From a virus, in IMG/VR virus record IMGVR_UViG_3300022777_000031, positions 10,204-74,203 of that record: 64,000 nt of DNA, one strand, 5' to 3'. The notes beneath the pieces were generated by a model. The model did no database searches. It had not been told where the DNA came from and saw nothing but the letters and a program-made list of their open reading frames with translations. A program made the position numbers and the translations under genes. Within the stretch, counting starts at the first letter, position 1. Every line of letters begins with the position of its first letter. Of the stretch, positions 10,563-50,380 are shown in pieces.

Positions 10563-10578
10563 CAACAATAATAACAGT

Positions 10579-10986
10579 ATGGATACAAACGGACTTAGAC
10601 GATACATTCGAGAAGAGATTCGCGACCTCATTCAAGAGCAAAAGTTTGAATACAAGGCGGTTGACGAAAGAGCCGAACCGCAGCCTGAAGTCAAAGAGGC
10701 TGTGAAACGCTTTCGGGAGATGGATCCGGAAGAGAGGGACACAAACATTTTGCTCTACTGGCTTTTGGGAAGTGGAACCCCTCCATATAAAATGAGCCAG
10801 GAGGACGCAAAATACTCTGACGACGCCGGAACGGCCGAAACCGCTTGCGCGAACTGCGAGTTTTTCTATCAGAAAGTGCCAACCGGAGAATACATTTGCT
10901 CGCAGATCCGTGGAAAGGTTCGGCCGGAAGGATGGTGCAACCAGTGGAAACTTGCAGACAACATTGACGATGAAGAAGCTGACTGA
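10579..10986 (+). CDS. HiPIP-like iron-sulfur domain protein with N-terminal LRxxIREE module
   Basis: CANCEFF..C..IRGKVRPEGWCNQW four-Cys pattern. Confidence 0.65.
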   Translation: MDTNGLRRYIREEIRDLIQEQKFEYKAVDERAEPQPEVKEAVKRFREMDPEERDTNILLYWLLGSGTPPYKMSQEDAKYSDDAGTAETACANCEFFYQKVPTGEYICSQIRGKVRPEGWCNQWKLADNIDDEEAD

Positions 10987-11860
10987 ATCACATTTGCGTC
11001 GTATCATTCGGGAGGAAATGATGCTTCAAGAGCTTTCCCGTGGATCGGTGCTGTATCACCGCTCCAAAGAAGAGCTTCAACCCGGACAAAAGCTCGGCGG
11101 CGGCTCTCACGGAGAAAACGCCCATGAACGCAAAGCAGAGGCAGAGCAAGAGTTTGAAAAGTACAGAAGAGACTACGCTTCAAGCAAGCCGTCAAGATAC
11201 GGCGCAGTGTTTCTCTCCCCGACGCCGAAGTCGCGATTCAATAAGTTTGGCGACCTCTACAAGGTGAAAATAACGGGAAATTACCACGTCGCAGACTCTC
11301 GAATGTTTGACGCCTACCAGAGCCCTTGGGACTACGACGATATAAGCAAAGAAGGGGCGATCCGCTGCTACTGGAATCCAGGTAGTTTCAAAGGGTGTCC
11401 GGACGTAAGAAACGTGAATCCGAAATACCTTGAAGTGGTTGCCGACGAAGCGACAGTTGTGGAGAAGGTTGGCAGCGACTTTCTCACGGAAGGCGACCAG
11501 ATTCGTGTACTTGAATCCCCACCAGTGCGTGTACAGAAAGGCACTGACGGCACATCGGACGACCCTGAAGTTTGGCGGGATCACCCGAAGATTGAAAGAG
11601 TTTATGAGGGTTCTACGGGGGACTACCGAGACTACGACGTGTACAACGCAGAGCTAAAAATACCTTCGGTGTGGACAGTTTCTTACGCCGAACCACATGA
11701 TTCTCACCAGCAGCAAAGCACCATTCAAAAGCGGGGAGAGCCGGGAATGAACTACGCTTACGACACTTACAAGAAAATCCACTTGGAGGACGGAAGAGTT
11801 GCCCCAGCGTACGGCGCATACGACGACAGCATTGAAAAACTCAAGTTTGAAGAGGTATGA
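10970..11860 (+). CDS. ADP-ribosyltransferase-fold (DUF2441-like) protein with N-terminal MKKLTESHLRRIIREE module
   Basis: VLYH..LQPGQKL, EQEFEKYR..KPSRYGAVF, LYKV..HVAD pattern. Confidence 0.55.
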   Translation: MKKLTESHLRRIIREEMMLQELSRGSVLYHRSKEELQPGQKLGGGSHGENAHERKAEAEQEFEKYRRDYASSKPSRYGAVFLSPTPKSRFNKFGDLYKVKITGNYHVADSRMFDAYQSPWDYDDISKEGAIRCYWNPGSFKGCPDVRNVNPKYLEVVADEATVVEKVGSDFLTEGDQIRVLESPPVRVQKGTDGTSDDPEVWRDHPKIERVYEGSTGDYRDYDVYNAELKIPSVWTVSYAEPHDSHQQQSTIQKRGEPGMNYAYDTYKKIHLEDGRVAPAYGAYDDSIEKLKFEEV

Positions 11861-12429: not shown

Positions 12430-12439
12430 CCAAAATGTA

Positions 12440-21971: not shown

Positions 21972-24743
21972 ATGCCTATTGACCTAAGAGAAACGGTTAC
22001 GGATCCAGACACAGGAAACTCGCGCACGGGAAATCTATTTGAAAGTGAACTGGCGGTTCAAACCGTGGGTTCATCTGAAATCATGGAAAATCGTGCCGTT
22101 CTCGAAGGTGAGCTGACCACATTCACCCCGGATGCTTTTGTCGACAGCGACGCCGAAGTGCTCTTCTATTACGCCGAGCAAGGAAACGCAGTTGATAGCA
22201 ACGAAGTATCGGCTGGAACTCTTGGTTCTACAGGAACGTTCACCACAGAAGTCACAGGACTCACTCAAGAAACCACATACGAGTTTCAAGCCGCCGTTCG
22301 AATCGATAATGACGAGGCCACCGGTTCTGTTCAAACCCTCACGACCGGCCTCTTCACGATCACAACGACAGCGGCAACGAACGTCACTGACGCGGAAGCA
22401 AAGCTGAACGGCGAGTTCACGGAAGTCTCTGGACTTGACGCGAACGACTACACGCCTTCCTTCGAATACAGGGAAACGGGAACTGGAAGCTTCACAGAAA
22501 CCACACTTACCGTAAACTTCAGTGATCCAAGTCCTGGCGACTCATTTTTCCTTAATATCGATGCGCTTTCAGGTGGCACTGAGTATGAGTTTCGAGCAAA
22601 AGTTGAAGGACTTGGGGAAACCGAAGAAGGCGGCCTTTTGACCTTCATCACAGAAAACATTGGGGTCACGACACTTTCTCCAACCGGCGTTGAAGCTCAA
22701 GAAGCGACTCTTGAAGGTGATATTACCGAAATCCAAGGACCAACCAGCGTTGACTATCGGTTTGATTGGGGAACTTCGGGAAACCTTTCGAACTCTACGA
22801 ATTCTACGACGACATCAAACACAGGACAGGTTTCTGAAACGATTACAAACCTTGATGCTGACACGACGTATGATTATGAACTTGTTGTCACGTCACCGAA
22901 CGCTACATACAATGGCGGGACAGCTCAGTTCCAAACCGAAGACGCTGCCGTAAGCACGGCGTCTGCAACAGGCACCACGTCTGGAAGCGCAACGCTCAAC
23001 GGAAATGTTGATGCTCTTGCTTCTGGATTTAACACGATTGACGTTGGGTTTGAATACCGAGAAGCGGGAACAACCAACAGCTTCACGACTCTCGACGCAG
23101 GAACATTAGGTGGAGTCAACAACTTCTCGGCTTCAATTAGCGCTGGAACACTTTCAGAGAACACTCAATATGAGTTTCGAGCAACGGGAGCGGTTGGAGG
23201 AAACACGTTCCAAGGATCGCTTGAAACTTTCACGACGCTTGACGAAACGGTTGCCGTCGACACGGTTGCCGCTACTCAACTTGGGGCAACTCAAGCAACG
23301 CTCAACGGAGATGTGACGACCTACGATAACGTCGAGTCTGCTAACGGATTCTTCGAGTACGGACAAACCAGCGGAAGCGTTGACGACAACAGCACGACAA
23401 CACAAAGTATCAACAATACCGGCGGATTCTCTGAAACTGTTACTGGACTCTCTGCGGGAACAGACTATGAGTTCCGAGCAGTGGTTGACACGCTTCAAAC
23501 AGAAACGACGGGATCTGCTGTTGGATTTACAACGGATGCGGTTGCTGTATCGACGAATGCGGCAACCAACGTCGGAACTGGAAGCGCCGACTTGGAAGGA
23601 AGTATCGACGAGCTTGAAAGTGGGCAAAGCGCAGACGTTCAGTTTGATTGGGGAATCGATGGAAATAATCTTCCGAACACGACGTCAACAACAACGGGAC
23701 TTTCTACCGGACTATTTGACGAAACGATTACAAGTCTCACTCCGGGAGAGACCTATGAGTTTCGCGCTACAGGAACTGAGCCAAACAGTGGAGACACCGA
23801 CCAAGGTTCTGTCATGACATTCACCCTTGATGATCTTCAGGTTTCCACAAACTCTGTATCAGTCATTAGCGACACAGACATTGACTTTACAGGCGAGATC
23901 ACTGTAAACGAAGACGGCGGCTCCGCAGACGTTGGCGTTGAGTATCAACAGACGGGCCAGAGCGGATTCAACAACTCCACGAGCGCAGGCACCGTGTCCG
24001 GTACGGGAACATTCAGCGGAACGATTACTGGACTTACGGCAGGTATAGAGTATGAGGTTCGAGCATTTGCTGAACTTGATACAGGGCGCGTTACTGGATC
24101 TACACAAACGGTAACGACTCTTGAAGTCGGCGTCACGACTGATGCAGCAACCACCATAAACGTTGGATCTGCTACGCTCAACGGAACGCTTGACGCTTTG
24201 GGAGCTAGCGAAAATGACGCTGCAGTTTCGTTCGATTGGGGTCTATCGTCCGGATCTGTTGACGACAACAACGTGACCGCTGATCAAAGTCCGGTGTCTC
24301 CGGCTCCAGCATCGTTCGACACTGAAATCACTGGACTTGACCCAGATACGGAGTACCAGTTCCGAGCGCAAGCGACAGGAAACCCATCCGGCGACGTGGC
24401 AGAAGGAAGCACTCTCACGTTCACGACGGACAACGTTGCGGTTTCCACGACAACGAACGTCACAAGCGTCACGACATCTAGCTTCACAGTGGAAGGAGAT
24501 CTCACGACCTTCACTGGTGACAACGACGTGACGATTGGACACGAGTACGTGACTTCAGGTGGATCCTTCTCATCTAATGGCACGGATGTAACGTCTTCCT
24601 CCAGTCCAACGCAGTCCACGGGAACATTCACCACGGACATTACAGGGCTCAGCTCTGGCACGTCCTACGATTACAGGGCGTTTGTGGAGGTGGATGGAGT
24701 TCGAATCAATGGAACAACTGAAACCACAAGCACGAACTCATAA
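21972..24743 (+). CDS. Fibronectin type III-like repeat protein (fibre/decoration/adhesin)
   Basis: About nine ~95-aa Thr-rich repeats of T..AT.V....A.LNG...F.(Y/W)....ITGL...T.YEFRA. Confidence 0.8.
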   Translation: MPIDLRETVTDPDTGNSRTGNLFESELAVQTVGSSEIMENRAVLEGELTTFTPDAFVDSDAEVLFYYAEQGNAVDSNEVSAGTLGSTGTFTTEVTGLTQETTYEFQAAVRIDNDEATGSVQTLTTGLFTITTTAATNVTDAEAKLNGEFTEVSGLDANDYTPSFEYRETGTGSFTETTLTVNFSDPSPGDSFFLNIDALSGGTEYEFRAKVEGLGETEEGGLLTFITENIGVTTLSPTGVEAQEATLEGDITEIQGPTSVDYRFDWGTSGNLSNSTNSTTTSNTGQVSETITNLDADTTYDYELVVTSPNATYNGGTAQFQTEDAAVSTASATGTTSGSATLNGNVDALASGFNTIDVGFEYREAGTTNSFTTLDAGTLGGVNNFSASISAGTLSENTQYEFRATGAVGGNTFQGSLETFTTLDETVAVDTVAATQLGATQATLNGDVTTYDNVESANGFFEYGQTSGSVDDNSTTTQSINNTGGFSETVTGLSAGTDYEFRAVVDTLQTETTGSAVGFTTDAVAVSTNAATNVGTGSADLEGSIDELESGQSADVQFDWGIDGNNLPNTTSTTTGLSTGLFDETITSLTPGETYEFRATGTEPNSGDTDQGSVMTFTLDDLQVSTNSVSVISDTDIDFTGEITVNEDGGSADVGVEYQQTGQSGFNNSTSAGTVSGTGTFSGTITGLTAGIEYEVRAFAELDTGRVTGSTQTVTTLEVGVTTDAATTINVGSATLNGTLDALGASENDAAVSFDWGLSSGSVDDNNVTADQSPVSPAPASFDTEITGLDPDTEYQFRAQATGNPSGDVAEGSTLTFTTDNVAVSTTTNVTSVTTSSFTVEGDLTTFTGDNDVTIGHEYVTSGGSFSSNGTDVTSSSSPTQSTGTFTTDITGLSSGTSYDYRAFVEVDGVRINGTTETTSTNS

Positions 24744-25105
24744 TGAGCGAAGGCGACAGAAAGACAACGGCGGCCGCTTCAATCGGAAGAGCGATTGGCG
24801 GCCGCCGTACGTATTCCGGTACCATGAAGTGGTGGCGTGCCCACAATCATAAAGATCTGGAGTGGCGCGTCCAGCTCAAAACTGATGACGGCCACCTTTC
24901 TTTGATGGTGAAACCCGCTGAAGCAGGCTTGAGCGGAGACAAAATCGAGTTTGACGCTTCCGACTCGTTTCCGACATTCAAAAGCGAGGCGGGGGACATT
25001 GAATACGAAAACGCCGAGCAGTTCGTCGGTGCCGTCGCCGATCTTGCCAAAGAGCAAGAGCTTCGTGAAATCGTTCGGCGTGAAATATCTTCACTTCTTC
25101 TTTGA
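24743..25105 (+). CDS. Hypothetical protein with C-terminal LREIVRREI module
   Basis: Coupled to the previous stop. Confidence 0.6.
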   Translation: MSEGDRKTTAAASIGRAIGGRRTYSGTMKWWRAHNHKDLEWRVQLKTDDGHLSLMVKPAEAGLSGDKIEFDASDSFPTFKSEAGDIEYENAEQFVGAVADLAKEQELREIVRREISSLLL

Positions 25106-38305: not shown

Positions 38306-38324
38306 AGTATAACGACACGCAATA
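38282..38324 (+). promoter_or_regulatory. Second promoter-like repeat, copy 1 (CCCGGAAC-N17-GTATAA-N2-ACACGCAATA)
   Basis: Same elements and spacing at 38786-38828. Confidence 0.6.
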
Positions 38325-38349
38325 CAAGACGGTCCAACCAACCTGCGTT

Positions 38350-38784
38350 ATGGAAATATCCAGAGGCGACGCCGTTCTTATTGAAGGCACTCGCCACGAA
38401 GGCGAAGAAGGTCGGGTGGTTGGATTTGACGGAGATTGCGCTGATCTTGACATTTTCGGCAGTCCGGGCAAGACTCGTTCGGTTCTGACAAAGTATCTCG
38501 TTGACAGCCCGTTTACCGAAAACGAAGATTGGAGCAGCGAGTTTTCCGACGACGGGCTCGTTGATTGGAATAAGCAGTATCAGCCGAGCGTTCCGTTGGA
38601 AGAGTTTGACGAAGAAGACCGGGTTGAAGTGGTGGATAGTAACGACGAACGGTTTATCGGCGCAACCGGAAGAGTGCATGACGCAGAAAAGATTAACGGA
38701 GAGTGGTCCGTGATGGTTTTTCTTGATATGCCTTGGGACCGCAACCGGGACTTTGGGGTAAGTGACCTCAAGAAGATTAGATGA
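38350..38784 (+). CDS. Tandem SH3/KOW-like domain protein
   Basis: Two repeats of GD.V....G..G.V.... Confidence 0.6.
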   Translation: MEISRGDAVLIEGTRHEGEEGRVVGFDGDCADLDIFGSPGKTRSVLTKYLVDSPFTENEDWSSEFSDDGLVDWNKQYQPSVPLEEFDEEDRVEVVDSNDERFIGATGRVHDAEKINGEWSVMVFLDMPWDRNRDFGVSDLKKIR

Positions 38785-38785
38785 A

Positions 38786-38828
38786 CCCGGAACAAACTCT
38801 TGCGTATGGGGTATAAGAACACGCAATA
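38786..38828 (+). promoter_or_regulatory. Second promoter-like repeat, copy 2 (upstream of tmRNA)
   Basis: CCCGGAAC-N17-GTATAA-GA-ACACGCAATA. Confidence 0.6.
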
Positions 38829-39383
38829 TCAACAAAGTTCTTTATACTTATAGAAGCGAGAAGAGGCAAACCCCTTGCGGTAAGGTCCAATCCTCGCTGT
38901 ACATGGGACTGACACGGATTCGACGGGGATCGCGGAGTAAGTGTCACGGCTTGGCGCAGCATGTGAGCGCCACAAATAAGTGAATCATGAATCATAGTTG
39001 GCAACAACGCTAACTACGAAGCCGCCGGGTTCACGGCGGAGGACTTCGCTACGATGGATGGCGAGAGCCTCTATCACGGCGAGCGCGAGCTTGTCCGTGC
39101 GTAACGGAGTCGGGACGCACAAGCGTCCCTTCCATCCGGACCTCGACGCCGATAGAGAAAGTGCGAAACAGGCTTTGCCATGACGCACTGTGTTCGGGTG
39201 ACACCTTATCGGCAGATCGCCATAACTGGCGCCGCCCTTTTCGTGGGGTGACTTGTAAAGAATAGAAAACACGAAATAGACCGCCACTACCTTCTGCGTC
39301 GGAAGGATGAGCGGTGAACCAATCCGACGCTATGGCCGTGAGTAACATGACGCTGCGAAGGATCTTCGGACACGGGTTCGACT

Positions 39384-40049
39384 TAATGGTCGCACTTGAA
39401 ATTTAAGTGAAAAATGACGCTCAAGCGGTGAACGCTGAAATGCCAACGCTGCGCTAAAATCATCTGGAAACGGATGACAAACGCCCAGAGACTTCGGAAT
39501 ATGCTTCAAGCTTGAAAAAGTTTTTTGTGTGTTCCGGGATGAAAAAATTCTTCTTGGAGCTTGAGCTTACGTTCTTTAACTTCGGTGGAGTATTTGCCGT
39601 TTTTTGGAGTCAAGTCACGATAATGTTCAACGATAAGTTTAGACCGATGAAGCTTTTCTTTTTCTTTAAGAAAAGTTTGAATTTCAGATAAAAAGTCTAC
39701 AGCGTCGTTGAAAGTGAGACTCCAAGAATAAGAAGTTTTGTGAGACTTTTTGTAAGTCTTGTGTTTGCTAATTGAACCGCCATAGTTCTCTTCCATAAAT
39801 TCTAGAAGCTCTCGACTTGTGGAAGAAACTGATACAACCGGATGCCTAAATTCGGTGTTGTTTCGGTTATTAGCAAGAGTAATAGTTCCTTCACCGTCAA
39901 TTATTCCAGCAGCGTAAGCAAGTTTGAGTTCATATTTTTTCATAAATGCGTCAAATTTTGGTTTTGGATGTGTGTTAATACGTATGTTGTCCAAAGCTAA
40001 AATTATGGTATAGTCCACTCCATAACAAAAAATAAGTTATGGGTAAGTG
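39384..40049 (+). mobile_element. Group I self-splicing intron in the tmRNA T-loop
   Basis: P1 CGACU-UAAU-GGUCG with a U-G splice pair; P4/P5 GCGGT..GCTGC; P7 CAGAGACT and GGTATAGTCC; P9 CCATAAC/GTTATGG; terminal G 40049. Confidence 0.88.
39506..39943 (-). CDS. Single-motif LAGLIDADG homing endonuclease encoded antisense inside the intron
   Basis: LAYAAGIIDGEGTI..VSVSSTSRELLEFMEENYGG..YSW; lies between the two P7 strands. Confidence 0.9.
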   Translation of the reverse strand: MKKYELKLAYAAGIIDGEGTITLANNRNNTEFRHPVVSVSSTSRELLEFMEENYGGSISKHKTYKKSHKTSYSWSLTFNDAVDFLSEIQTFLKEKEKLHRSKLIVEHYRDLTPKNGKYSTEVKERKLKLQEEFFHPGTHKKLFQA

Positions 40050-40166
40050 TCCCGTCAGTTCCAGACTCCAAATAGGAACAACCGTCACGAGGTTGGAGTC
40101 GTAAGTAACTTATAGAGTGAAACCAATAGTTCCTAACAGTGAGTATCTTTGCGGAGACGCAGAACT

Positions 40167-40197
40167 CGCCCCGACCCCCCAAAGTCGGGGCGTTTCT
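40167..40197 (+). terminator. Intrinsic terminator downstream of tmRNA
   Basis: CGCCCCGAC/GTCGGGGCG followed by TTTCT. Confidence 0.65.
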
Positions 40198-40226
40198 GTA
40201 TCTGTATCATACATTTACATTTTGCT

Positions 40227-40484
40227 ATGTGGCTACGTTGCCGCTTTGAAGCAAACTTAGAAGATCCTCGTCCTGTTGAGTTTCCGCCGCCCGGCCCGTA
40301 TTGGATTACTGGATATGGTGACGACTATTCAACGGTTGTCGCTTATGTTCGCGAACGAGAGCAAGTTCGCGAGTACTGGCCTGAGGCGGAGCATATTAGC
40401 CAACAGCAACAAGAAGAAATCGTCTTCACCGAACGATTTGCAGAACCTGAATGGTGGGACTCACAAGAATCTGACAACGAATAA
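40227..40484 (+). CDS. Hypothetical protein (PYWITGY motif)
   Basis: 85 aa from ATG 40227. Confidence 0.65.
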   Translation: MWLRCRFEANLEDPRPVEFPPPGPYWITGYGDDYSTVVAYVREREQVREYWPEAEHISQQQQEEIVFTERFAEPEWWDSQESDNE

Positions 40485-40498
40485 ACAACTGAATACTT

Positions 40499-40753
40499 AT
40501 GGAAATCTATCTCACTTTCGTTATTCTCTGGACGCTGTACATGGCATTTGAGAACTTCATGTACGTTCGGCCACAAAGCCGACCTCACTTCGTCGGATTT
40601 CTGATCACGAATACGCTTTTGGCTCCGATCTCGTTTGTGTTGAGCCTTTATGGAGGAATCCTTGGAGATCGGCTTACGGCGGCTTACACGGCGGCAAACA
40701 AGCAGAAGTCCGACTTCCTTCACAAGACTGGAAAGAAAAAGCTCATTGGATAG
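40499..40753 (+). CDS. Small membrane protein
   Basis: Two transmembrane segments; resembles the next ORF. Confidence 0.6.
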   Translation: MEIYLTFVILWTLYMAFENFMYVRPQSRPHFVGFLITNTLLAPISFVLSLYGGILGDRLTAAYTAANKQKSDFLHKTGKKKLIG

Positions 40754-40954
40754 ATGATTTATTACGCTTTGCTGATCCACTTTCTGTGGGCAGTGTACGC
40801 TCTTTTCGTCAATAAGAGCATCAACCGAAGCGACGCTATCAGCGTGCCTTGGTACAAAAACGCGTTGGCGTTTCTTCTGAACTTCGTTCTGTGTCCTGTT
40901 GGCATTGTGATTGCCGCATACAACGAGTACAGTGGTGAAGACAGTCTTCTCTGA
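40754..40954 (+). CDS. Small membrane protein (tandem paralog-like)
   Basis: LW..Y..F..N..L.P pattern shared with the previous ORF. Confidence 0.6.
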   Translation: MIYYALLIHFLWAVYALFVNKSINRSDAISVPWYKNALAFLLNFVLCPVGIVIAAYNEYSGEDSLL

Positions 40955-40995
40955 GCCTTCACAAAACAAGGGGTTTCTCGATCATACTTATAGAC

Positions 40996-41106
40996 GCGGT
41001 TGGCTGGTTTGATTGGAAAGCAAAACCGGCCCAGCGACTAGGGAGCCTACCCAAGTGTTCTCGGTGAGGAGCCGAGCGCCGAGAGGCGAGGCAAAACCGC
41101 TTTCCA
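40996..41106 (+). ncRNA. Candidate ~110-nt structured RNA with a pseudoknot
   Basis: CATACT box ~8 nt upstream; GCGGTT/AACCGC, GCTGG/CCAGC, CTCGG/CCGAG, CGCC-GAGA-GGCG; TGGAAAGC 41014-41021 complementary to GCTTTCCA 41099-41106. Confidence 0.5.
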
Positions 41107-41140
41107 CCCTTTGTTTTGTTTCACCACAGAACGCAGAAGA

Positions 41141-41332
41141 ATGAGCTATCACAACAAAGTTCGAGTCAAAATCCTCGTTGGCAAGCACGCCGGAAAGACC
41201 TTGAAGGCGGTGAAAGCGAAGAACATGAATACGGAGAACGGCTTGCCGTATGACGATCCCGATCCGGTCTACATTACAAAGACCGAAGACGAGTATCAGT
41301 ATGCCCCCAGCGAGGTAGAAGTATTGGACTAG
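41141..41332 (+). CDS. Small SH3-like hypothetical protein
   Basis: 63 aa from ATG 41141. Confidence 0.55.
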   Translation: MSYHNKVRVKILVGKHAGKTLKAVKAKNMNTENGLPYDDPDPVYITKTEDEYQYAPSEVEVLD

Positions 41333-41354
41333 CCACTCGGTCATTCTCCGAAGG

Positions 41355-41393
41355 ATGGGTTGCCTGGATTCAGTTTCGGGCAACCCATTTTTT
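41355..41393 (+). terminator. Intrinsic terminator
   Basis: ATGGGTTGCC/GGCAACCCAT followed by a T tract. Confidence 0.75.
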
Positions 41394-41501
41394 ATGTCGT
41401 GCATATACATAAGATTGAAGCCCCCAATGAAAGTTGCCTTCTCGAAATCTACATAATGATGGCAACCAGTTATAATGAACTCTTAGCAACAAAGACCGCA
41501 C

Positions 41502-41990
41502 ATGGCTGTTCTTCCAGAGAACGAACTGTTTTACACCGAGTTTGAGCCGAAGCGGAAAAACCAGTTCGTATTCTTCATCGAAGGCATTCCGACGTACATG
41601 ATTCGGGAAGCCTCTCGACCAGAGTACGACTTCAACACGCTCACGCTTCCTCACATCAACATCAACCGTCGCCTGAAGGGTAAGATTCAGGAGTACTCCG
41701 ACGTGACCCTCACGCTTTACGATCCGATTAGCCCTAGCGGTTCTCAGATCGTCATGGAGTGGGTTCGCCTTCACCACGAGGCAGTCACGGGACGAGACTC
41801 CTACGCAGACCTTTACAAGAAGGACGTAACCTACAACACCCTTGACCCGACCGGCGCATTCGTTGAAGAGTGGACTCTAAAGGGAGCGTTCATTTCCAAC
41901 GTCAACTTCGGTGACACTGCTTGGGACGACGACGCCGAACACACAATCGAGCTGACGCTTACGTACGACTACCCGGTCCAGCAGTTCTGA
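41502..41990 (+). CDS. Tail tube protein (T4 gp19-like)
   Basis: FEPKRKNQF, TLYDPI..MEWVR, EEWTLKGAFI..FG..W..IELTLTYD. Confidence 0.9.
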   Translation: MAVLPENELFYTEFEPKRKNQFVFFIEGIPTYMIREASRPEYDFNTLTLPHININRRLKGKIQEYSDVTLTLYDPISPSGSQIVMEWVRLHHEAVTGRDSYADLYKKDVTYNTLDPTGAFVEEWTLKGAFISNVNFGDTAWDDDAEHTIELTLTYDYPVQQF

Positions 41991-42115
41991 TAAACTCTTG
42001 TCTCCCAAAGACTTACAAGGAATTTGGGTTGTTCGAGCATAATCATATGTAAGTGTTATCCCGAAAATTATGGTTTGCACTTATATTTATTGGTGAGCGA
42101 AGATTTTCATCAATA

Positions 42116-43147
42116 ATGATTATGTTTGAATGTGATTTTTGCGATAAAGAGTTTGATTCAAAGCGCGGGCGAAATAGTCATGAAACTCAAGTTCACGAAG
42201 AAGAAAAAAGAAAGAGATATGAAGAAAATAATCCGGTAGCCTGTCCATATTGTGATAAGAGATTTGAGAAGTATGAGTCTCTTGTCAGACATGCGTCGAG
42301 AGTTCATGATGACATTGATTCGCCCCGACTGTATGTCGATTATCATTTGAATGGTGAGTGGCCGACTTGCGAATGTGGCTGCGGAGAAGAAGTAAACTTT
42401 CAAAGGGGATCCGAGAGGGGATACGGCTTTGCGAAGTATAAGCAAGGCCACCATGTTCGCGATCAAGATGGATTCTACACAGAAGAAGGCTTGAAAAAGT
42501 CGGCTGAAACTCGCCGGGAGCAGTTTGAAAACGGAGACAGAGAGCCGTGGAACAAGGGGATGAGTCTTGACGAAAATCCGGATAATGAAGGACTCCAAAA
42601 GCTTCACGAAAAGAACTTGAAAGAGAACAACCCGGAACGAGGACGAAAAATTTCAGAAGCTTTGAAGGGTAGAGAGTTTGATGAAGAGACGATTGAAAAA
42701 TTGACAGAACATTGGCAAGAATACTGGAGCGATCCGGAGCATAGAAAAAAGTAGAGTAAGAGAAGAAAAAAGTGGATGGAGGAAAATGGATATGACTTCA
42801 TTGATTCTAAACTTGAGCGGGAGTTTGAAGACATTTTAGAATCATCGGATATAGAGTACATCTATCAAAAACATGAAAATGTCCCGGGATCTTTGACAGG
42901 TGCTTTTTACGACTTCTATTTACTGAAAACAGACACATACATAGAAGTTCATGGAGATTTTTGGCACTGCAATGAAGACGCTGGATATGAAGTTGCAGAA
43001 TATGAAGCACAAAAAAGAAATTTGAAACGAGATAAAGAAAAACGCGCGTGGTGCGAAGAAAACGACAAAGACTTGCTTGTGTTTTGGGAAAGAGACATTC
43101 AAAACAACCGCCAATCAGTCGTCAAAAGATTGCTTGAATACACATAA
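42116..43147 (+). pseudogene. C2H2 zinc-finger plus Vsr/DUF559-type endonuclease, split by an in-frame TAG (42752-42754)
   Basis: CDFC..H..H, CPYC..H..H and CECGCG; then WSDPEHRKK*SKRRKKWMEE..SKLE..YDFY..IEVHGDFWH. Confidence 0.75.
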
Positions 43148-43152
43148 CAAAA

Positions 43153-43401
43153 ATGAATATGAAGGAATCGAAGCTTCGCAGTATCATTCGCGAAGAGCTT
43201 GTTCGCGAAAAAGTTGTCGACGTTGAACCGTACGACGGCGTTTCGCCAAAGGTTACAGGAACGTATGGTTCTTCGGAAGTCTCTGTTGAGGTTCGCCGGA
43301 AAGGTGCCGCTATTTTAACGTATAACGACAGAGGCAAACTTTTGAGCAAAGCGAAGCTCGGGCGGGAAGAAGCACAAGAAATAGCAAACGCATTGACATG
43401 A
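43153..43401 (+). CDS. LRxIIREE-module protein
   Basis: MNMKESKLRSIIREELVRE. Confidence 0.75.
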   Translation: MNMKESKLRSIIREELVREKVVDVEPYDGVSPKVTGTYGSSEVSVEVRRKGAAILTYNDRGKLLSKAKLGREEAQEIANALT

Positions 43402-44093
43402 AAGATTTAGTAGACGCAACAATTCGCTATCTTCAAAGGCAAGGGAAGAATGCAGAAGTTGTATCATCCCGGCGGCCTCCAACCAAACTTCGCGTTCAAG
43501 GTCATCAAGTGAAGATTGAGCCGCTTGAAGACCCGAGGGGCGTTTCAAGAAGGGTTCGTGTTCATGTGTTTGATACTGCAGGCGGCCGGGGCGGGCCGAA
43601 GCTTGGAAGTCGGGACGTAACAAAAAGTGGAAAAGAGATTGCGGACGCCATTATTGGAATTCTGAACAGAAGAGTAAGTGAATCACAGCTACGACAACTT
43701 ATTCGAGAAGAAGCCCGGCGGCTCACGGAAAGCCGAAGGTACAGGTCTTCGGAGTTCATCGATGATCTCGTTGCCGGTGTTGGCGACGAGCACATGGGCT
43801 ACAAAGTAGAAAAGGGAGAAAAAAGCACTGTTCGCCTTTCCGCCAGCTCTTCTGCAGGACAGCGGATTGAAGTCCGGGCAACTCCCTTCTTTCAGGGACG
43901 AACAGAAGATATGACGGTTTCAGTTTCCATCAATGGGGATATAGTAAGAGCGGGTAAGATGGCGTTCTACGGAGAGTCAATGGTAGAGAAGATTGAGGAA
44001 GGGCGGCTTGAAAGTGCGGCGGCGATGTACAAAGACGCAATCGCACCCGTGCTTGAAGCAGGATATGGACTTGCCAAAATCCGACAGGTATGA
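43398..44093 (+). CDS. LRxIIREE-module protein (internal module)
   Basis: VSESQLRQLIREEARRLTE. Confidence 0.7.
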   Translation: MKDLVDATIRYLQRQGKNAEVVSSRRPPTKLRVQGHQVKIEPLEDPRGVSRRVRVHVFDTAGGRGGPKLGSRDVTKSGKEIADAIIGILNRRVSESQLRQLIREEARRLTESRRYRSSEFIDDLVAGVGDEHMGYKVEKGEKSTVRLSASSSAGQRIEVRATPFFQGRTEDMTVSVSINGDIVRAGKMAFYGESMVEKIEEGRLESAAAMYKDAIAPVLEAGYGLAKIRQV

Positions 44094-44443
44094 CTCCTGA
44101 AGCATCACAAGACCTTCAAGCGTATTTCGGAATGAATCTCTTCGGAGATGAAGAGGAAGAACAAACAGATAACGATATGGAAGAGCAAAAACTACGACGT
44201 GTTGTACGAGAGGAAATCAAAGGCGTACTTCAAGAGTACGGCACCGACGCTGATCCAGGCCAGGCGACGGCCGCTTCTGGAGGTGGTCCGGGCACTGATT
44301 GGTTTTACATCGCCCGCCTTATGAGCGATCTCGATCAAAATCGGCGTGAAATCAAGGACATCGGCCAGAAAGAAGTTGGCGGGGAGACTGTTCATGAGTT
44401 CGCTATGCAGGACAAGGTGTTTCAGATCCGCAAGGTACGATGA
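44090..44443 (+). CDS. LRxIIREE-module protein
   Basis: MEEQKLRRVVREEIKGVLQE. Confidence 0.7.
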   Translation: MTPEASQDLQAYFGMNLFGDEEEEQTDNDMEEQKLRRVVREEIKGVLQEYGTDADPGQATAASGGGPGTDWFYIARLMSDLDQNRREIKDIGQKEVGGETVHEFAMQDKVFQIRKVR

Positions 44444-45517
44444 TAAAAGAAGGAACTTGGGCAGCGCCATATAGTGAAGGGGACGCCGAACAGTTGCGTC
44501 AAGCCATGAATCGGCCTATGGGGCCGGAAGAGTATAAAGACCAGTTTGACGATATTCTCGGCACCGACGAGCTTTACGACAGGCTTCGCCACTACGACAA
44601 AGGAACAGACATTCGGCACGTCGTCGCTGACTATATTCGTGACGACATTCTCAAGGGCTTTGACGCGTCCGATTGGGACGGCCAATGGGACGATAAAGCG
44701 CTTCGCATTCTAAGAGACATAGCAAGAAAAAGAACCGTGGAACAGCTTGACAGAAACCGACTTCAAAATCTCATTCGTGAAGAGCTGCAGAAGCTCAATG
44801 AGCTTGGCATTGATCGTGGCTTTCTCAACGGGTTCGCTGAAGAGCTTGAGCACATCACAGGCAACAAGGCGTACCCCAAGGATGACGTTCCCGGCAACGA
44901 AGACGTCGTGAACTACAACGGCAAGCTTGATATTTACTTTCGAAGCGGGGGAGCACGTGGAGGACGCACCGATGACGTTTCGATTCAGATTTACGGTCGC
45001 AGCGGAAATGTTCGCTCTGGATTTACGGCTCCGAATGATCCAGAGGAAGCGGCGGAGCGAACCGCAGAAGAGCTAAACAAAATCAACGAAATGAAGCTTA
45101 CAGAAAGCATGCTTCGATCCATCATTCGAGAAGAGCTTTCCCGACTGAACGAGTATGGAGCCGAGAACCTTGAAGGCGCAGAACTTGGAGGAATGCACAC
45201 TCAAGACTTCCTTGACGCTCTGGCAAAAGAGATTGAGAGCGAAACCGGAAGGGGACGCGATTCCAGTTCCTGCAGGACGAACTGCTGGAATGGGCGTGAC
45301 CGCTGACGTTTCCGAAGACGATATCATCATCTTTGAGGGAAGAAATCAAAACGTATACATTAGCGTTGAAGCGTCCAAGTCTGGAATCGCAGGAAGTCTG
45401 CGCACAGGAAACGGTGAGATTCTGAGATCCTTCGGGGCGGCGCCGAGCGGTGGCAACACTCCGGGAGCGATTGCTTATCGAATCCTTGGGGCTCTTCGAG
45501 ATGTTGGAGAAGCGTAA
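44440..45517 (+). CDS. Polyprotein-like LRxIIREE-module protein with two internal modules; apparent +1 frameshift at 45250-45254
   Basis: RLQNLIREELQKLNE and MKLTESMLRSIIREELSRLNE; frame 0 stops at 45306 and a plausible sequence continues in +1 (DAIPVPAG...) to 45517. Confidence 0.6.
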
Positions 45518-45531
45518 AAACTAAATTTGAT

Positions 45532-46068
45532 ATGAGCGAACAAAAGCTACGACACAAAATCCGAAGCCTCATCAAAGAGGAAGCCGAGGAAGAGGAAGTA
45601 ATCCAAGGCGAAGAGCACGACGAGGAAGAAGACCCCGAAGAGCGTGTTGGCGTTGAAAACGCCGAAAGTGGCAACCAGTATAAAGTTCGCCGCTCTTTCG
45701 CCTTTGAAAATCCGCAGCGGTATAACAAAATCCGTGAAGCGGTTCGAAGCACGATCAAAGACGTGCTTCATGAAGCGGGTGCTCAAACCAACATGTTCGG
45801 CACGTCCGCAAAGGGTAATCCCCGAGAGGCAATCCGAAAGGCAGACCGATTCGAGATTCATACAGAGATGCCAGAAGACTTTGGCAAGCACTTCGAGAGC
45901 TACGACCTCAAAGAAATCGTCGAGTGGCTTGAAGGACACGCCCGGCGAGGCAGCAGTGCCGACGAGTATGAGGTGACTGCTTACCAAGGCCGAACAGTTC
46001 TCGAAGTGATTCCAGGACAAAAGTTTCTACAACTCGCACGAAATACAGACCTAACAGCAAGACCATAA
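45532..46068 (+). CDS. LRxIIREE-module protein
   Basis: MSEQKLRHKIRSLIKEE and KIREAVRSTIKDVLHE. Confidence 0.7.
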   Translation: MSEQKLRHKIRSLIKEEAEEEEVIQGEEHDEEEDPEERVGVENAESGNQYKVRRSFAFENPQRYNKIREAVRSTIKDVLHEAGAQTNMFGTSAKGNPREAIRKADRFEIHTEMPEDFGKHFESYDLKEIVEWLEGHARRGSSADEYEVTAYQGRTVLEVIPGQKFLQLARNTDLTARP

Positions 46069-46072
46069 AGTT

Positions 46073-46360
46073 ATGACAGAACTTCAATCCCAAAGTGATT
46101 TTCAGCAAGCAATCCAAGACTGCGTTATCGTCGACTTCTATGCCGAGTGGTGCGGCCCCTGTCGCCAGATGGCACCGATGCTTGAGGAGGTGGACGCAAA
46201 CATTGCGAAGCTCGACGTCGACGAGAATCCGGAGCTTGCTCAAGAATACAGTGTTATGAGCCTTCCCACACTTGTTCTCTTCAATGACGGCGAAGAGGTT
46301 GAGAGGGTCGTTGGCGTTCAGAAAAAGGGTGATATCGAATCTCTCTATCAAAGCTGCTAG
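46073..46360 (+). CDS. trxA: Thioredoxin
   Basis: VDFYAEWCGPC..MSLPTL. Confidence 0.95.
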   Translation: MTELQSQSDFQQAIQDCVIVDFYAEWCGPCRQMAPMLEEVDANIAKLDVDENPELAQEYSVMSLPTLVLFNDGEEVERVVGVQKKGDIESLYQSC

Positions 46361-46363
46361 TAA

Positions 46364-46747
46364 ATGAAGCTCAAGGAAGCACTGAAAGAACGTATTAGAG
46401 AGCGGGTTCTGCAAGAGACGACGGGCCTATCTGCGTATCAGAGCGGTTCGTCAAACTCTGCGCGTTGGACGCCACCTGGAAAAGAGAAGGTGCTTTCTGT
46501 TCCGCAGCTTTCGGGATATTATCAAGTAGAGAGGCCAGTTGCCGATGATCCAATGCCAGCAGATAGTGTGGCTGATGGTCCGGACACAGACCTTTCCAGC
46601 GGTGTCGGTGTGAAGTATAACAACAAAGTGATACGTGATGACGACGGCCAGCTTACCGCTTCTGGAATGCCCGGTGAAGCGTTCGCCAGCCCAAAAGATT
46701 ATGTCGATGCACACGACACAGAAGAAGAAAATGAAGCAACTGCATAA
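46364..46747 (+). CDS. LRxIIREE-like module protein
   Basis: MKLKEALKERIRERVLQE. Confidence 0.65.
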   Translation: MKLKEALKERIRERVLQETTGLSAYQSGSSNSARWTPPGKEKVLSVPQLSGYYQVERPVADDPMPADSVADGPDTDLSSGVGVKYNNKVIRDDDGQLTASGMPGEAFASPKDYVDAHDTEEENEATA

Positions 46748-46757
46748 ACAAAATACA

Positions 46758-47186
46758 ATGAATAAGATACGAAACAAAATCCGAAGTCTCATTCGCGAAG
46801 AACTTAATTACAAAGGAAGTGGAAACCAACCTGCAAGAGGAACAGCGAACTCGTATCTTCAACGGTTCCTGAAGGAAATTTTTCAGAAATTGGCTTCACA
46901 GCTTCAATCAACGTATGATATTAATTTTTCAGATGTGGTTGAGGGGCGCCTTGCTCTGAGCACTGAATTTGAAGTGTATAATAGTCGTCAAGACAGATTT
47001 TACGACGGCGAGATGCACGTTTTCATTTACGATGACGACATTGTAAGCGTTGAAGTGAATGGGGGTCCAAAAGGATCTACGATTTCCGAGATGAACGAAA
47101 TTATCAGTCGTGATTTCGGATTCGACGAAAAGATTGTTTCACAAGTCAACATCGTTTCCGCAATGCAGACCCTTGCAGGTAGGTAA
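46758..47186 (+). CDS. LRxIIREE-module protein
   Basis: MNKIRNKIRSLIREELN. Confidence 0.7.
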   Translation: MNKIRNKIRSLIREELNYKGSGNQPARGTANSYLQRFLKEIFQKLASQLQSTYDINFSDVVEGRLALSTEFEVYNSRQDRFYDGEMHVFIYDDDIVSVEVNGGPKGSTISEMNEIISRDFGFDEKIVSQVNIVSAMQTLAGR

Positions 47187-47227
47187 ATCATATATAACAC
47201 ACAGACACACAAAAACAACAAACCGCT

Positions 47228-47473
47228 ATGAAACTTACTGAAAGCAAACTCCGAAAGATCGTACGTGAAGAGCTGCAAAAAATCGCGAAGAAGCAGCAAA
47301 TGAATGAGCTTTCCTACCGTGAAGATAAGATGCGAGAGCTTCTTTCTCGTGAGCCGAAGCTGGAAAGAATTCGCCGGGAGGCAGGACACGACCTCAAGCG
47401 AATGTTCAACCAGTACGTCAAGCGCAATAAGGAAATGAAGCGCAAGTACAAACAAGCATCTCCACAATCATAA
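47228..47473 (+). CDS. LRxIIREE-module protein
   Basis: MKLTESKLRKIVREELQKI. Confidence 0.75.
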   Translation: MKLTESKLRKIVREELQKIAKKQQMNELSYREDKMRELLSREPKLERIRREAGHDLKRMFNQYVKRNKEMKRKYKQASPQS

Positions 47474-47790
47474 TGAAACTGACTGAAAGCAAACTTCGCG
47501 ACATCATTCGAGAAGAGCTTTCCCGGCTCAACGAGGCCGGAATGATGACAACCCGTGAGTGGATTGACCGCTTCGTGAATGCTCTTCACCAGGAGGGCGC
47601 GCAAGATGTTCGTGCTCCACGCGAGAACGAGCTTGAAGCGGACGGCCAGCTCATTGAGATTGACCCGAAGCATCGAGACAACATGGTTCACATCACAATC
47701 CGTGGAAGCATGGGCGATCGACATGAACGAGTCATTGGCCGCATGGGCGCTCCCCGTGAGGCCGCAAAAGAAATAATGCGTAAACTATGA
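47473..47790 (+). CDS. LRxIIREE-module protein
   Basis: MKLTESKLRDIIREELSRLNE. Confidence 0.75.
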   Translation: MKLTESKLRDIIREELSRLNEAGMMTTREWIDRFVNALHQEGAQDVRAPRENELEADGQLIEIDPKHRDNMVHITIRGSMGDRHERVIGRMGAPREAAKEIMRKL

Positions 47791-48176
47791 AACTAACAGA
47801 GCAAAGACTACGACAAATCATTCGAGAAGAGCTTCGTGAAGTCCGTTCCACGCCAGCGACTTCCGAACGCGGCGAGTTGATTGACAGGATCACTCCAGTT
47901 ATCGAAAGGATGGATGAAACTCGCTTGCGCCAGGAGCTTCTCGGCTTTGGGTTTGAGCGGTTTGCTGACATTCTGAAGTATATCGACCGCCACCACAACC
48001 TTCTGGACGAGCCGGTTCCACAATCCCGGTTCAACCGAGAAGAAGTCCGAAACAAACTCGTTCGATTCGCTGAACGGTACATGCGAGTTTTGGGCAAGAC
48101 GGAGTTTGCTCAAGAGTTCATGAAGGCAGTTTCTATGGACCAGCTTCGAGCATTCGCCGATCAACTTCGAGTATAA
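47787..48176 (+). CDS. LRxIIREE-module protein
   Basis: MKLTEQRLRQIIREELRE. Confidence 0.75.
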   Translation: MKLTEQRLRQIIREELREVRSTPATSERGELIDRITPVIERMDETRLRQELLGFGFERFADILKYIDRHHNLLDEPVPQSRFNREEVRNKLVRFAERYMRVLGKTEFAQEFMKAVSMDQLRAFADQLRV

Positions 48177-48193
48177 CACAAAACAAAACCGAT

Positions 48194-48574
48194 ATGAGCA
48201 ATCTACGTAAAGTCATTCAAGAAGAGCTTTCCAACATTCTTCAGTCCGTTGAGCAAACGGATCAAGAGATGGCAAGTCGAAAACGTAAAGACCGCATGAA
48301 AAAGATCGACAACGCCGAAACCGAAGAGCAGTGGTACAAAAACGAGTCGGACGGAAATGTTCGAGATCAAATCCGACAAATCGTTGCTGAAGAGTACCAG
48401 ACGCTTCGTGACGAGCCGGAAACTTCAATTGAGTACCGATCTGGAATTCGTGAATTTGAAATTGGCGATACTTCTGATCGGTGGTATATGGACGACGACG
48501 GTGAAGTGGATACCGAAAAGATTGAAGAAGTGGCAAAAGTGGCGACGACAAAGCTTCTTCAAGAGATGGAATGA
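48194..48574 (+). CDS. LRxIIREE-module protein
   Basis: MSNLRKVIQEEL and internal IRQIVAEE. Confidence 0.7.
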   Translation: MSNLRKVIQEELSNILQSVEQTDQEMASRKRKDRMKKIDNAETEEQWYKNESDGNVRDQIRQIVAEEYQTLRDEPETSIEYRSGIREFEIGDTSDRWYMDDDGEVDTEKIEEVAKVATTKLLQEME

Positions 48575-48592
48575 ACAACCAATGAAATAACC

Positions 48593-48952
48593 ATGAAACT
48601 AACAGAATCAAAACTACGGTCCATAATTCTCGAAGAACTTTCACGAATCAATGAAGAGCTTTCTGGGGAACGAAGAGAAAGAGTAGCCCGAATGGTAGAA
48701 AAGGCTGTTGACTATCTTGGTCTTCCGTACCAAAGAAACACAGCTGGCAACCATAGCTCGGGAGAAATTGAATTCGTCAATAACTCTGATAGTGCAGGGT
48801 TTTTTGTAAGGGAAGCTGGAAGTGACCAAATTGAAATTGTAGGTAGAGGTCGCGGGTATAGAGAAGGAGGAACGAAGGTGGTTCTTACAGATGTGCAAAC
48901 AGTTGCTGATGCAATTGAAGACGAGCCGCTTGCAGAGCGCCGTCGCCGATAG
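48593..48952 (+). CDS. LRxIIREE-module protein
   Basis: MKLTESKLRSIILEELSRINE. Confidence 0.75.
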   Translation: MKLTESKLRSIILEELSRINEELSGERRERVARMVEKAVDYLGLPYQRNTAGNHSSGEIEFVNNSDSAGFFVREAGSDQIEIVGRGRGYREGGTKVVLTDVQTVADAIEDEPLAERRRR

Positions 48953-49017
48953 AAAGAGCCTGCTCTGGGACGTGGGCAAGCTCCAAGACATTACTAACAA
49001 CAAGCAAAACAACTATT

Positions 49018-49410
49018 ATGAGACTCACGAAAAGTAAACTTCGCGGTATTATCCGGGAAGAGCTTTCACGGTTGACCGAAGATGTCGATGCAGACTCTGT
49101 GCTCGACGACATAAAATCGTTTCGGCTTCCCAAGTCTGGAGGGCGAAGCAACGTTGTGGACACAGACATAGACAAACGAAGACCGGGAATTGGATTCAAC
49201 ATTTACTTTCGGAGTTGGGGCGATTGGGAAAGTAGAAACTATTTGGAGACCGAAAGCCTGCGCAAAGCCGAAAACGCGTGGCAATCGTTCGTAGAGAGGC
49301 AGTCTTGGAGCAAGTATATTGTAAAAGCTGACGTTTACGAAGAAGAAAAACAGTATATCCGGTGTTCGGTATACCTGAAACCTGAAGTCGTTTCCGAAAT
49401 GCCTACGTAG
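49018..49410 (+). CDS. LRxIIREE-module protein
   Basis: MRLTKSKLRGIIREELSRLTE. Confidence 0.75.
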   Translation: MRLTKSKLRGIIREELSRLTEDVDADSVLDDIKSFRLPKSGGRSNVVDTDIDKRRPGIGFNIYFRSWGDWESRNYLETESLRKAENAWQSFVERQSWSKYIVKADVYEEEKQYIRCSVYLKPEVVSEMPT

Positions 49411-49498
49411 GACAATCTTGCGGCACAGGGCATAAAGCCCACAATCTTCAACTTTCCGATACTCGGCATGAATGCGGGTTCGACTCCCGTCGTAGGCA
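49401..49498 (+). tRNA. tRNA-like element / pseudo-tRNA (possibly degenerate Leu-TAA); no encoded CCA
   Basis: Perfect acceptor GCCTACG/CGTAGGC plus discriminator A; canonical T arm GCGGG-TTCGACT-CCCGT; non-canonical D and anticodon arms (GGG-CATAAAG-CCC); variable-arm-like CCGA-TAC-TCGG. Confidence 0.5.
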
Positions 49499-49544
49499 CT
49501 TTTCATAAGGGTTTCATTCTGGATTTTCATACTCTCTTCTATTT

Positions 49545-49585
49545 ATGGGTGCGGTGGCCGCCAAGAGCCATCGTGCCCGTTTTTT
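49545..49585 (+). terminator. Intrinsic terminator (G-U-rich stem)
   Basis: ATGGGTGCGGTGGC/GCCATCGTGCCCGT followed by a T tract. Confidence 0.6.
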
Positions 49586-49612
49586 ATTGAATGAACGAAA
49601 CCAAACTCAGTT

Positions 49613-50380
49613 ATGGACGTCAAATCCAAACCAGTCGATCTTCCGAGCGAAGGATACTTTTATCCAGAGGATCACCCGCTCGCGAAAGGCACAATCGAGA
49701 TTCGCCACATGACGGCGAAAGACGAGGACATTCTGACCGACGAACAGCTCATTCAGCGAGGTGAGGCGATCGACAAGCTTCTCGAAAACGTTATTGTCGA
49801 GGAAGGTGTGGATCTCGACGACGTGCTTAACGGAGACGTGGGCGGCATTATGCTCGCTACACGTATTCTTGCTTACGGTCCAGAGTATGCTTTTGAGACC
49901 GAATGCCCGGTGTGTGAAAAGCAAAACCAAAAAAGCGCTGATCTCACCGAAATCCAGAGTAAGGAAGTTCCGTTCGAAGACTTCGAGCCTCACCAGACGA
50001 GGTTCCAGACGACACTTCCGGTTACGGGAGCAAACGTGACTTTCAAGCTACTCACTCGTGGAGACGTTCAGCAAATCAACTCAGAGCTTGACCGGGTGAA
50101 GCGAAATGCGAATAAGAAGTCGGAGGGACCGCAAGTTTCGACAAACATGACCACGAGGCTTCGGCACTTGATCGAAGACTTCAACGGAGAGTCCAGCATG
50201 AAGGAAATCCGTGAGTTCGTCGACAACTTGCCCGCCAAAGACAGCCTTGCACTTCGCAAAGAGGTGAGTCGGATCAATCCAGACCTCGACCTTGAACACG
50301 AGTTCATATGTGACTTTTGCGGTCATTCGGAGTTCATGAACATCCCGTTGGATGAAACATTTTTTTTTCCTACCGAATGA
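49613..50380 (+). CDS. Tail assembly chaperone / baseplate hub assembly protein (gp26-like)
   Basis: VDLPSEGYFY..IEIRHMTAKDEDILT..CPVC..CDFC..FFFP; upstream of the tape measure gene. Confidence 0.8.
   Translation: MDVKSKPVDLPSEGYFYPEDHPLAKGTIEIRHMTAKDEDILTDEQLIQRGEAIDKLLENVIVEEGVDLDDVLNGDVGGIMLATRILAYGPEYAFETECPVCEKQNQKSADLTEIQSKEVPFEDFEPHQTRFQTTLPVTGANVTFKLLTRGDVQQINSELDRVKRNANKKSEGPQVSTNMTTRLRHLIEDFNGESSMKEIREFVDNLPAKDSLALRKEVSRINPDLDLEHEFICDFCGHSEFMNIPLDETFFFPTE

Follow-up and report, generated by a model that had tools for sequence, protein, structure and literature searches.

The stretch analysed here, referred to below as the window, is a 64-kb part of an 86-kb IMG/VR virus record that is estimated to be 54% complete and that we assign, by its gene content, to an uncultured T4-related myovirus. 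Between positions 43153 and 49410 its + strand carries fifteen tightly packed open reading frames (ORFs), one of which specifies a thioredoxin, while a module that reads (M)KLTESKLRxIIREEL is found in each of the other fourteen. With a probability that we put at about 0.55, this module serves as a leader that addresses proteins to the prohead and is then removed by the head protease. The N-terminal leader helix would dock the protein onto the scaffolding core during head assembly, and a head protease of the T4 gp21 family would cut it off at the closing [LIVM]-x-E. In proteins built of several units the same enzyme would also act on a second [LIVM]-x-E that stands just ahead of each internal module, freeing the units, and the freed payloads would remain in the head with the DNA. 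We infer, as a further step, that the payloads may be delivered into the host and act there as effectors.

The consensus leader reads MK[LI]TESKLRxIIREELxx[LIVM]xE and forms an amphipathic helix of about 21 residues. Naming genes by their first position, the module is N-terminal in 43153, 45532, 46364, 46758, 47228, 47473, 47787, 48194, 48593 and 49018, in some of them in degenerate form; it is internal in 43398 and 44090, and two internal copies are found in 44440. Three outlying copies are present in 10579 (MDTNGLRRYIREEI), in 10970 (MKKLTESHLRRIIREEM) and at the C-terminus of the ORF starting at 24743, so that about 17 small proteins bear a leader-type module. A loose regular expression gave 16 matches in the window, 15 of them on the + strand within 43174-49039 and spread over 12 array genes, as against 0.62 on average, and never more than 2, in 50 codon shuffles. 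A reading made earlier from the letters of this DNA (the sequence-only reading) had described a shared module in at least 12 near-consecutive genes, the three outlying copies and a frequent closing L/I-x-E, all of which are borne out: [LIVM]-x-E lies 4-8 residues past REE in roughly 8-10 of the 16 in-window copies. The consensus of the T4 gp21 prohead protease is L/I-x-E. Taken as a motif, the end of the module often matches the head-protease signal that a capsid-targeting sequence (CTS) of the T4 type would carry.

A DNA-pattern scan of viral contigs revealed the same N-terminal leader, often arrayed, in many unrelated large-phage fragments. The profile-based survey suggested in the sequence-only reading was run with HMMER, using a 30-column leader profile against 1.84 billion representative proteins (E ≤ 0.001), and matched 2,918 protein clusters. 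Among the best 149 matches the module starts at residue 1 (±2) in 140, and 116 contain at least two modules, spaced by a median of 130 residues; because module scores add up, the top of this list is biased towards multi-module proteins. In 57% of 267 modules a [LIVM]-x-E places its Glu at module position 21 or 22, the next residue being mainly G, A, D or S. Half of the internal modules (n = 126) also have [LIVM]-x-E within the 8 residues upstream, compared to 7.4% of control windows taken from the same proteins, and they therefore look like excisable linkers between two protease motifs. These internal copies are not simply fused gene calls, since only 55% of them begin with Met. Pfam assigned almost no domains to the best 148 matches. 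We tentatively consider that the 21-22-residue module may be a self-contained, excisable address peptide with a head-protease site on either flank, attached to thousands of protein families, polyproteins included, in Far-T4-like and large aquatic phages.

When cultured phages were searched with the 25-residue leader by tblastn, only two chance-level matches were obtained. Three proteins of the cultured Flavobacterium phage immuto begin with MKKSQ[LI], followed by a related helix:

NC_055915.1, 102880-103359, 113188-113946 and 123355-123576: immuto leader-like genes gp094, gp080 and gp072

Relatives of the window were found among viral contigs with the baseplate hub protein, a T4 gp26-like product whose gene lies directly 3′ of the array. 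There are two close hub relatives, L003 (84% identical, on a 57-kb contig) and L004 (64%, on a complete 263-kb contig, G001); in about 150 more distant T4-like phages recovered by the hub search, no module was found beside the hub. The genome of G001 specifies a PF03420 protease of the T4 gp21 family (104 bits), and the order of its head cluster is terminase, portal, a 306-amino-acid gene, three small leader ORFs, protease, further genes, a gp22-like scaffold and a gp23-like capsid protein. The three leader ORFs directly upstream of the protease occupy the place of gp67/gp68 in T4. In the distant, AT-rich contig L168 four leader genes precede the protease and several follow it, and in both L098 and L151 the protease gene is followed directly by the start of a leader gene. 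Leader-bearing small genes flank the protease in at least four lineages. PF03420 was detected in all four of the leader-bearing records that are at least 60% complete and not in any of 20 controls, which were records with pattern hits at other positions and came mostly from small phages and proviruses; the test is weak because the leader contigs all come from large T4-related phages, which have the protease anyway. The repeated physical adjacency of leader genes to the protease is the stronger point.

The T4 protease cuts 65 residues off gp23 (PMC9958956). When the N-termini of capsid proteins are aligned, the T4 site LTE65/A (the slash marks the cut) falls on LIQE/A, LVSE/N, LVLE/S, IVSE/A and LISE/A in five phages of the clade, giving the pattern [LI]-[IV]-x-E/[ANS] with Glu as an invariant column. 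Because the gp23 site aligns and its Glu is invariant, the hydrophobic-x-Glu rule of cleavage very likely holds in this clade as well.

Conservation of the module is found at the level of the peptide. Between copies, nucleotide identity has a median of 51% and the longest exact match a median of 9 nt; of the codons for identical residues, 51% differ, from which we conclude that selection acts on the module peptide. The sequence-only reading had the module conserved in the DNA itself; this applies to a single pair of copies, 84% identical with an exact match of 24 nt, the longest observed. Recombinational swapping of payloads, which had been proposed on that basis, is correspondingly weakened, the DNA identity being too low in most pairs, and it retains one insertion or deletion (indel) that starts and ends inside modules.

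This indel emerges from a comparison of the window with L003, in which 16 module copies lie upstream of the hub; in G001 about ten leader genes and a thioredoxin hold the same place. Unit 2 of gene 44440 is orthologous to L003 1923-2258, where it is joined straight to the payload of 45532, the difference being one [module + unit] segment bounded inside modules. Array orthologs of the window and L003 are 43-76% identical, as against 84% for the hub; each array has genes absent from the other, and the ortholog of one gene (48593) lies at the opposite end of the array in L003. By these measures the array evolves faster than its structural neighbor, the hub, and differs in gene content, as do the internal-protein loci of the T-even phages (PMC3012670). 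It may represent a fast-evolving set of cargo genes, grown in part by tandem duplication of one small alpha/beta unit. The genes of the array, the hairpin behind it and the outlying module-bearing genes are as follows.

43153..43401, + strand: gene 1, 82 amino acids; N-terminal leader (MNMKESKLRSIIREEL) and small alpha/beta payload; L003 ortholog 49% identical
43398..44093, + strand: gene 2, 231 amino acids; leaderless unit, internal module (SESQLRQLIREEARRLTE), second unit; no ortholog in L003
44090..44443, + strand: gene 3, 117 amino acids; acidic N-terminus, then internal module (EEQKLRRVVREEIKGVLQE); L003 ortholog 60% identical
44440..45517, + strand: gene 4, multi-unit protein; modules at ~44740 and ~45091
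45532..46068, + strand: gene 5, 178 amino acids; degenerate leader (MSEQKLRHKIRSLIKEE), acidic stretch, conserved C-terminal domain
46073..46360, + strand: thioredoxin without leader; PF00085, 89 bits
46364..46747, + strand: gene 7, 127 amino acids; degenerate leader (MKLKEALKERIRERVLQE), Pro/Gly-rich payload; orthologs 76% identical in L003 and 49% in the 263-kb relative
46758..47186, + strand: gene 8, 142 amino acids; leader (MNKIRNKIRSLIREEL) and alpha/beta payload
47228..47473, + strand: gene 9, 81 amino acids; canonical leader and basic payload
47473..47790, + strand: gene 10, 105 amino acids; canonical leader with LNE end
47787..48176, + strand: gene 11, 129 amino acids; canonical leader with no L-x-E behind it; payload unlike those of the other genes
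48194..48574, + strand: gene 12, 126 amino acids; short leader (MSNLRKVIQEEL), acidic payload
48593..48952, + strand: gene 13, 119 amino acids; canonical leader with INE end; payload paralogous to that of gene 10
49018..49410, + strand: gene 14, 130 amino acids; canonical leader with LTE end
49545..49580, + strand: strong terminator-like hairpin between array and hub gene; 14 pairs, GC-rich, then TTTTTATT (T-run)
10579..10986, + strand: HiPIP-like gene in the neck/tail gene block; leader (MDTNGLRRYIREEIRDLIQE) and Cys-rich HiPIP-like domain
10970..11860, + strand: DUF2441 gene; leader (MKKLTESHLRRIIREEMMLQE) and DUF2441 domain with weak fold likeness to an Arr-type ADP-ribosyltransferase
24743..25105, + strand: 120-amino-acid ORF; module-like helix at the C-terminus (KEQELREIVRREISSLLL)

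The reading frame of gene 4 is broken near a run of G at ~45240, and a third module with its alpha/beta unit continues in the ORF 45155-45517; the break may reflect misassembly, a pseudogene or a programmed shift.

The payloads had been described as mutually unrelated, which does not hold for about half of them, since these share a weakly similar small alpha/beta domain. The products of 47473 and 48593 are 31% identical over 102 residues in a whole-length alignment, 43153 aligns with 49018, and BLAST indicates weak similarity among the units of 43398, 44440 and 46758, which have a common layout of helix, five strands and helix. A single family of paralogous small proteins was considered and rejected, because this likeness through the whole protein fails for 45532, 46364, 47228, 47787, 48194, 10579 and 10970. 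In the AlphaFold model of 47473 (pLDDT 73) the leader is predicted as a helix at residues 5-21, followed by a helix at 27-40, five strands and a helix at 94-104. A fold search of PDB and BFVD with this model returned nothing at E ≤ 0.001; its rows were weak and either PUR-alpha-like or from uncharacterised phage proteins. Nothing significant was found for the array proteins in Pfam and PHROGs, a word-based homolog search with gene 47473 returned only itself, and blastn of the array against cultured phages gave no match.

A hint of function is available for two payloads only. The product of 10579 contains a HiPIP-like domain (PF01355, 27.7 bits against a cut-off of 22). For 10970 we found 18 homologs, 43-100% identical, of which 12 carry a precomputed DUF2441 assignment; in all seven of those read the leader is kept, its sequence drifting but ending in LQE, LRE or IKE directly before the conserved domain. 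The model of 10970 matches the DUF2441 structure 2aua, and a weak match to rifampin ADP-ribosyltransferase (probability 0.87, E 0.13) thinly suggests a fold that would echo T4 Alt. A P-loop (zeta-toxin-like/AAA) kinase at 10009-10821 (- strand) of L168 likewise begins with the leader (ILKQLIREELGLLRE); its gene adjoins that of the terminase. The leader is thus joined to payloads of differing kinds, namely small alpha/beta units, a HiPIP-like domain, DUF2441 and, in L168, a P-loop kinase.

Short peptides that address varied cargo to the inside of an HK97-fold shell are also known from the encapsulins. Those cargo-loading peptides differ from the leader described here in being usually C-terminal and uncleaved, and in binding the shell protein itself. 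The wider cleavage motif of the phiKZ type is S/A/G-x-E. A phiKZ-like S80 propeptide system was considered and set aside, because the residue two before Glu is here L, I, V or M and not a small one (S, A, G). The likeness to phiKZ and SPN3US, with their gp21-related S80 protease, lies in the many head proteins with N-terminal propeptides, in paralogs that share N-terminal stretches, and in the several cleavage sites that one propeptide may hold (PMC5694885, PMC10052503). The sites of those phages have A or S two residues before Glu (AxE, SxE; PMC5694885) and, unlike in the present case, no single leader is known to extend across dozens of proteins. In T4 the internal proteins I-III (IPI-III) and Alt are loaded into the scaffolding core via a short N-terminal CTS, which is then removed by gp21, and the T-even phages have internal proteins that are diverse apart from this CTS (PMC3012670, PMC5694885, PMC9958956).

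The resemblance of the leader to the T4 CTS is that of a short N-terminal sequence common to otherwise diverse proteins, closing with hydrophobic-x-Glu, in phages whose relatives carry a protease of the same family (PF03420). The cargo genes are diverse and fast-changing, as at the T4 internal-protein loci, and one cargo (10970) recalls Alt through its weak ADP-ribosyltransferase-like fold. Unlike the CTS, which has ~10 residues, the leader has ~21-22, and the module also occurs inside multi-unit proteins with the motif on both flanks; copies are far more numerous in one genome (at least 17 here), the array lies beside baseplate genes, and the system is known here from sequence and gene context. 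The capsid-targeting principle is already established from T4. A literature search for leader strings found no paper, and the same was true of the spread of the leader, its polyprotein use and the two-sided motif flank; these, together with the leader sequence, are new with respect to the searchable papers. The leader system is probably a new and widespread variant of the T4 principle.

Should the module be the excisable peptide considered above, sequence could directly reveal which proteins are packaged or injected by a sizeable fraction of uncultured aquatic phages. If the leader is indeed a prohead address, the proteins packaged into the heads of a large and mainly uncultured set of T4-related aquatic phages, at least 2,918 clusters in public data, would be recognisable with one short profile. 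The fast-changing arrays might hold anti-defence or host-takeover proteins, the leader would constitute a longer, portable packaging tag, and the multi-unit proteins would be a natural case of polyprotein cargo processed inside a phage head. With its three related-leader genes, the cultured relative immuto makes the idea directly testable.

Several observations weigh against a prohead address. About a third of the leaders lack [LIVM]-x-E, and an E-rich amphipathic helix readily yields such a motif. In sequence the leader does not resemble the T4 CTS, and its length is double; likewise, hhalign detected no profile likeness between the head-cluster leader proteins and T4 gp67/gp68 (probability 0.1). 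The array adjoins baseplate genes and not head genes, may be read from a sigma-70-like promoter at 41448, and has a terminator-like hairpin of its own (49545-49580), while no T4 late-promoter box (TATAAATA) is found in the 64-kb window. (An ad hoc CATATA promoter motif was also tried and was not convincing.) A search of the 86-kb record revealed no portal, capsid, scaffold, protease (PF03420) or terminase genes, so that the head protease has to be taken from the relatives. The core motif, moreover, recurs elsewhere. Tape-measure-length ORFs of small phages and proviruses (L086, L090, L102, L115, L129 and about 20 more loci) have LLREIIREELDGMGGQ- or MLRSIIREELQNSG-type motifs 52-63 residues before the C-terminus, a separate conserved use. 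In L226, positions 10001-13114 specify a protein of 1,037 amino acids (P0070) with eight L-x-x-x-LRSIIxEEL repeats, located among CTP synthase and PRPP synthetase genes; since these are housekeeping genes, the core motif also occurs in a cellular-genome context.

Some of these points would fit an ordinary structural helix, used for oligomerisation or partner binding by fast-diverging small proteins that are not part of the virion, for instance in host takeover, with L-x-E as a by-product of an E-rich helix. The partial paralogy of the payloads, the possible sigma-70-like promoter and separate terminator of an array set apart from the structural genes, the similar motifs in unrelated settings and the third of leaders without L-x-E all agree with this explanation. 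We nevertheless regard it as unlikely, as it leaves unexplained why the module so strictly starts at residue 1 (140 of 149), why [LIVM]-x-E is enriched ahead of internal copies (50% versus 7.4%), why leader genes adjoin the head protease in several lineages, and why the leader is attached to unrelated domains. It seems to us no likelier that the proteins are addressed to the prohead as accessory scaffold or core components, much like gp67/gp68, which assist in building or filling the core and are degraded or expelled at maturation with no delivery of effectors. Such a role is suggested by the gp67/gp68 position of leader genes beside the protease in four lineages, by the many small, acidic payloads that have no known domains, and by one repeated small unit making up half of the array; the enzyme- or cofactor-like payloads (DUF2441/Arr-like, HiPIP-like, P-loop kinase) speak against it, and the fast turnover of genes among close relatives suits host-interaction genes better than assembly parts.

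The thioredoxin, which holds the same place inside the array in three related genomes, raises the question of whether the leader is a recognition tag for some other enzyme or chaperone, such as this thioredoxin or a modifying enzyme. This is very improbable, given that thioredoxin is absent from the leader arrays of L176, L168, L152, L173, L103, L084 and L194, that no other gene recurs beside leaders, and that neither Cys nor any other obvious site of modification is present in the leader. As a partner of leaders in general, thioredoxin was rejected, being kept in the array only within this clade. Most improbable of all is that the repeat functions as DNA or RNA, whether as a translation-initiation region that the genes share or as a recombination site. 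The closely matching pair of copies and the indel with both ends in modules could be cited in its favor, but the low nucleotide identity and short exact matches of most pairs and the occurrence of the module inside ORFs argue otherwise, and the codon data, with half of the codons for identical residues differing, largely refute it. Of the capsid-cargo addressing system as originally proposed, then, the addressing gains from the protease in relatives, the leader genes flanking it and the aligned [LIV]-x-E site, while the payloads are in part paralogous and the swapping at the DNA level is poorly supported.

The 86-kb record also contains two sheath genes, as well as UvsX-like, gp32-like and further replication genes. 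The capsid protein of the complete 263-kb relative is closest to those of Flavobacterium phage immuto (56%), Microcystis phage Mel-JY01 (50%) and Rhodothermus phage RM378 (36%), the RM378-type T4 relatives. This neighborhood, indicated here by capsid-protein identity, is treated as Far-T4 in PMC4360716; that paper makes no mention of prohead, gp67, gp68 or internal proteins.

A conserved protein is encoded in the head clusters between the portal-adjacent gene of ~290 amino acids and the protease. In this protein an N-terminal helix is followed by a Ser/Thr run and the motif G-x-Y-x-T-P-x-A-F; it belongs to no PHROG or Pfam family and is also present in the cultured phages immuto and Mel-JY01. 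Its loci are G001 (L206 4428-4673, - strand), L168 4561-5565 (- strand), L151 3016-3759, L098 436-1164, NC_055915 gp072 and PP395634 20492-21028. A PHROGs search with the head-cluster leader proteins of L151 and L168 gave nothing.

ARAGORN called no transfer RNA or transfer-messenger RNA in 38000-50000, including a tRNA-like stretch at 49401-49498 that had been pointed out earlier. Directly upstream of the array, at 42053-43147 of the window and apparently in the same transcription unit, lie genes for a C2H2 zinc-finger protein and for a nuclease that may be Vsr-like, the match being very weak (E 0.15). Two further large-phage fragments have leader arrays (L084 4370-10128 and L103 1131-4910) beside large genes whose matches are confined to PHROGs of unknown function, except that one of these genes also matches, more weakly, a PHROG with a sporulation-protein annotation.

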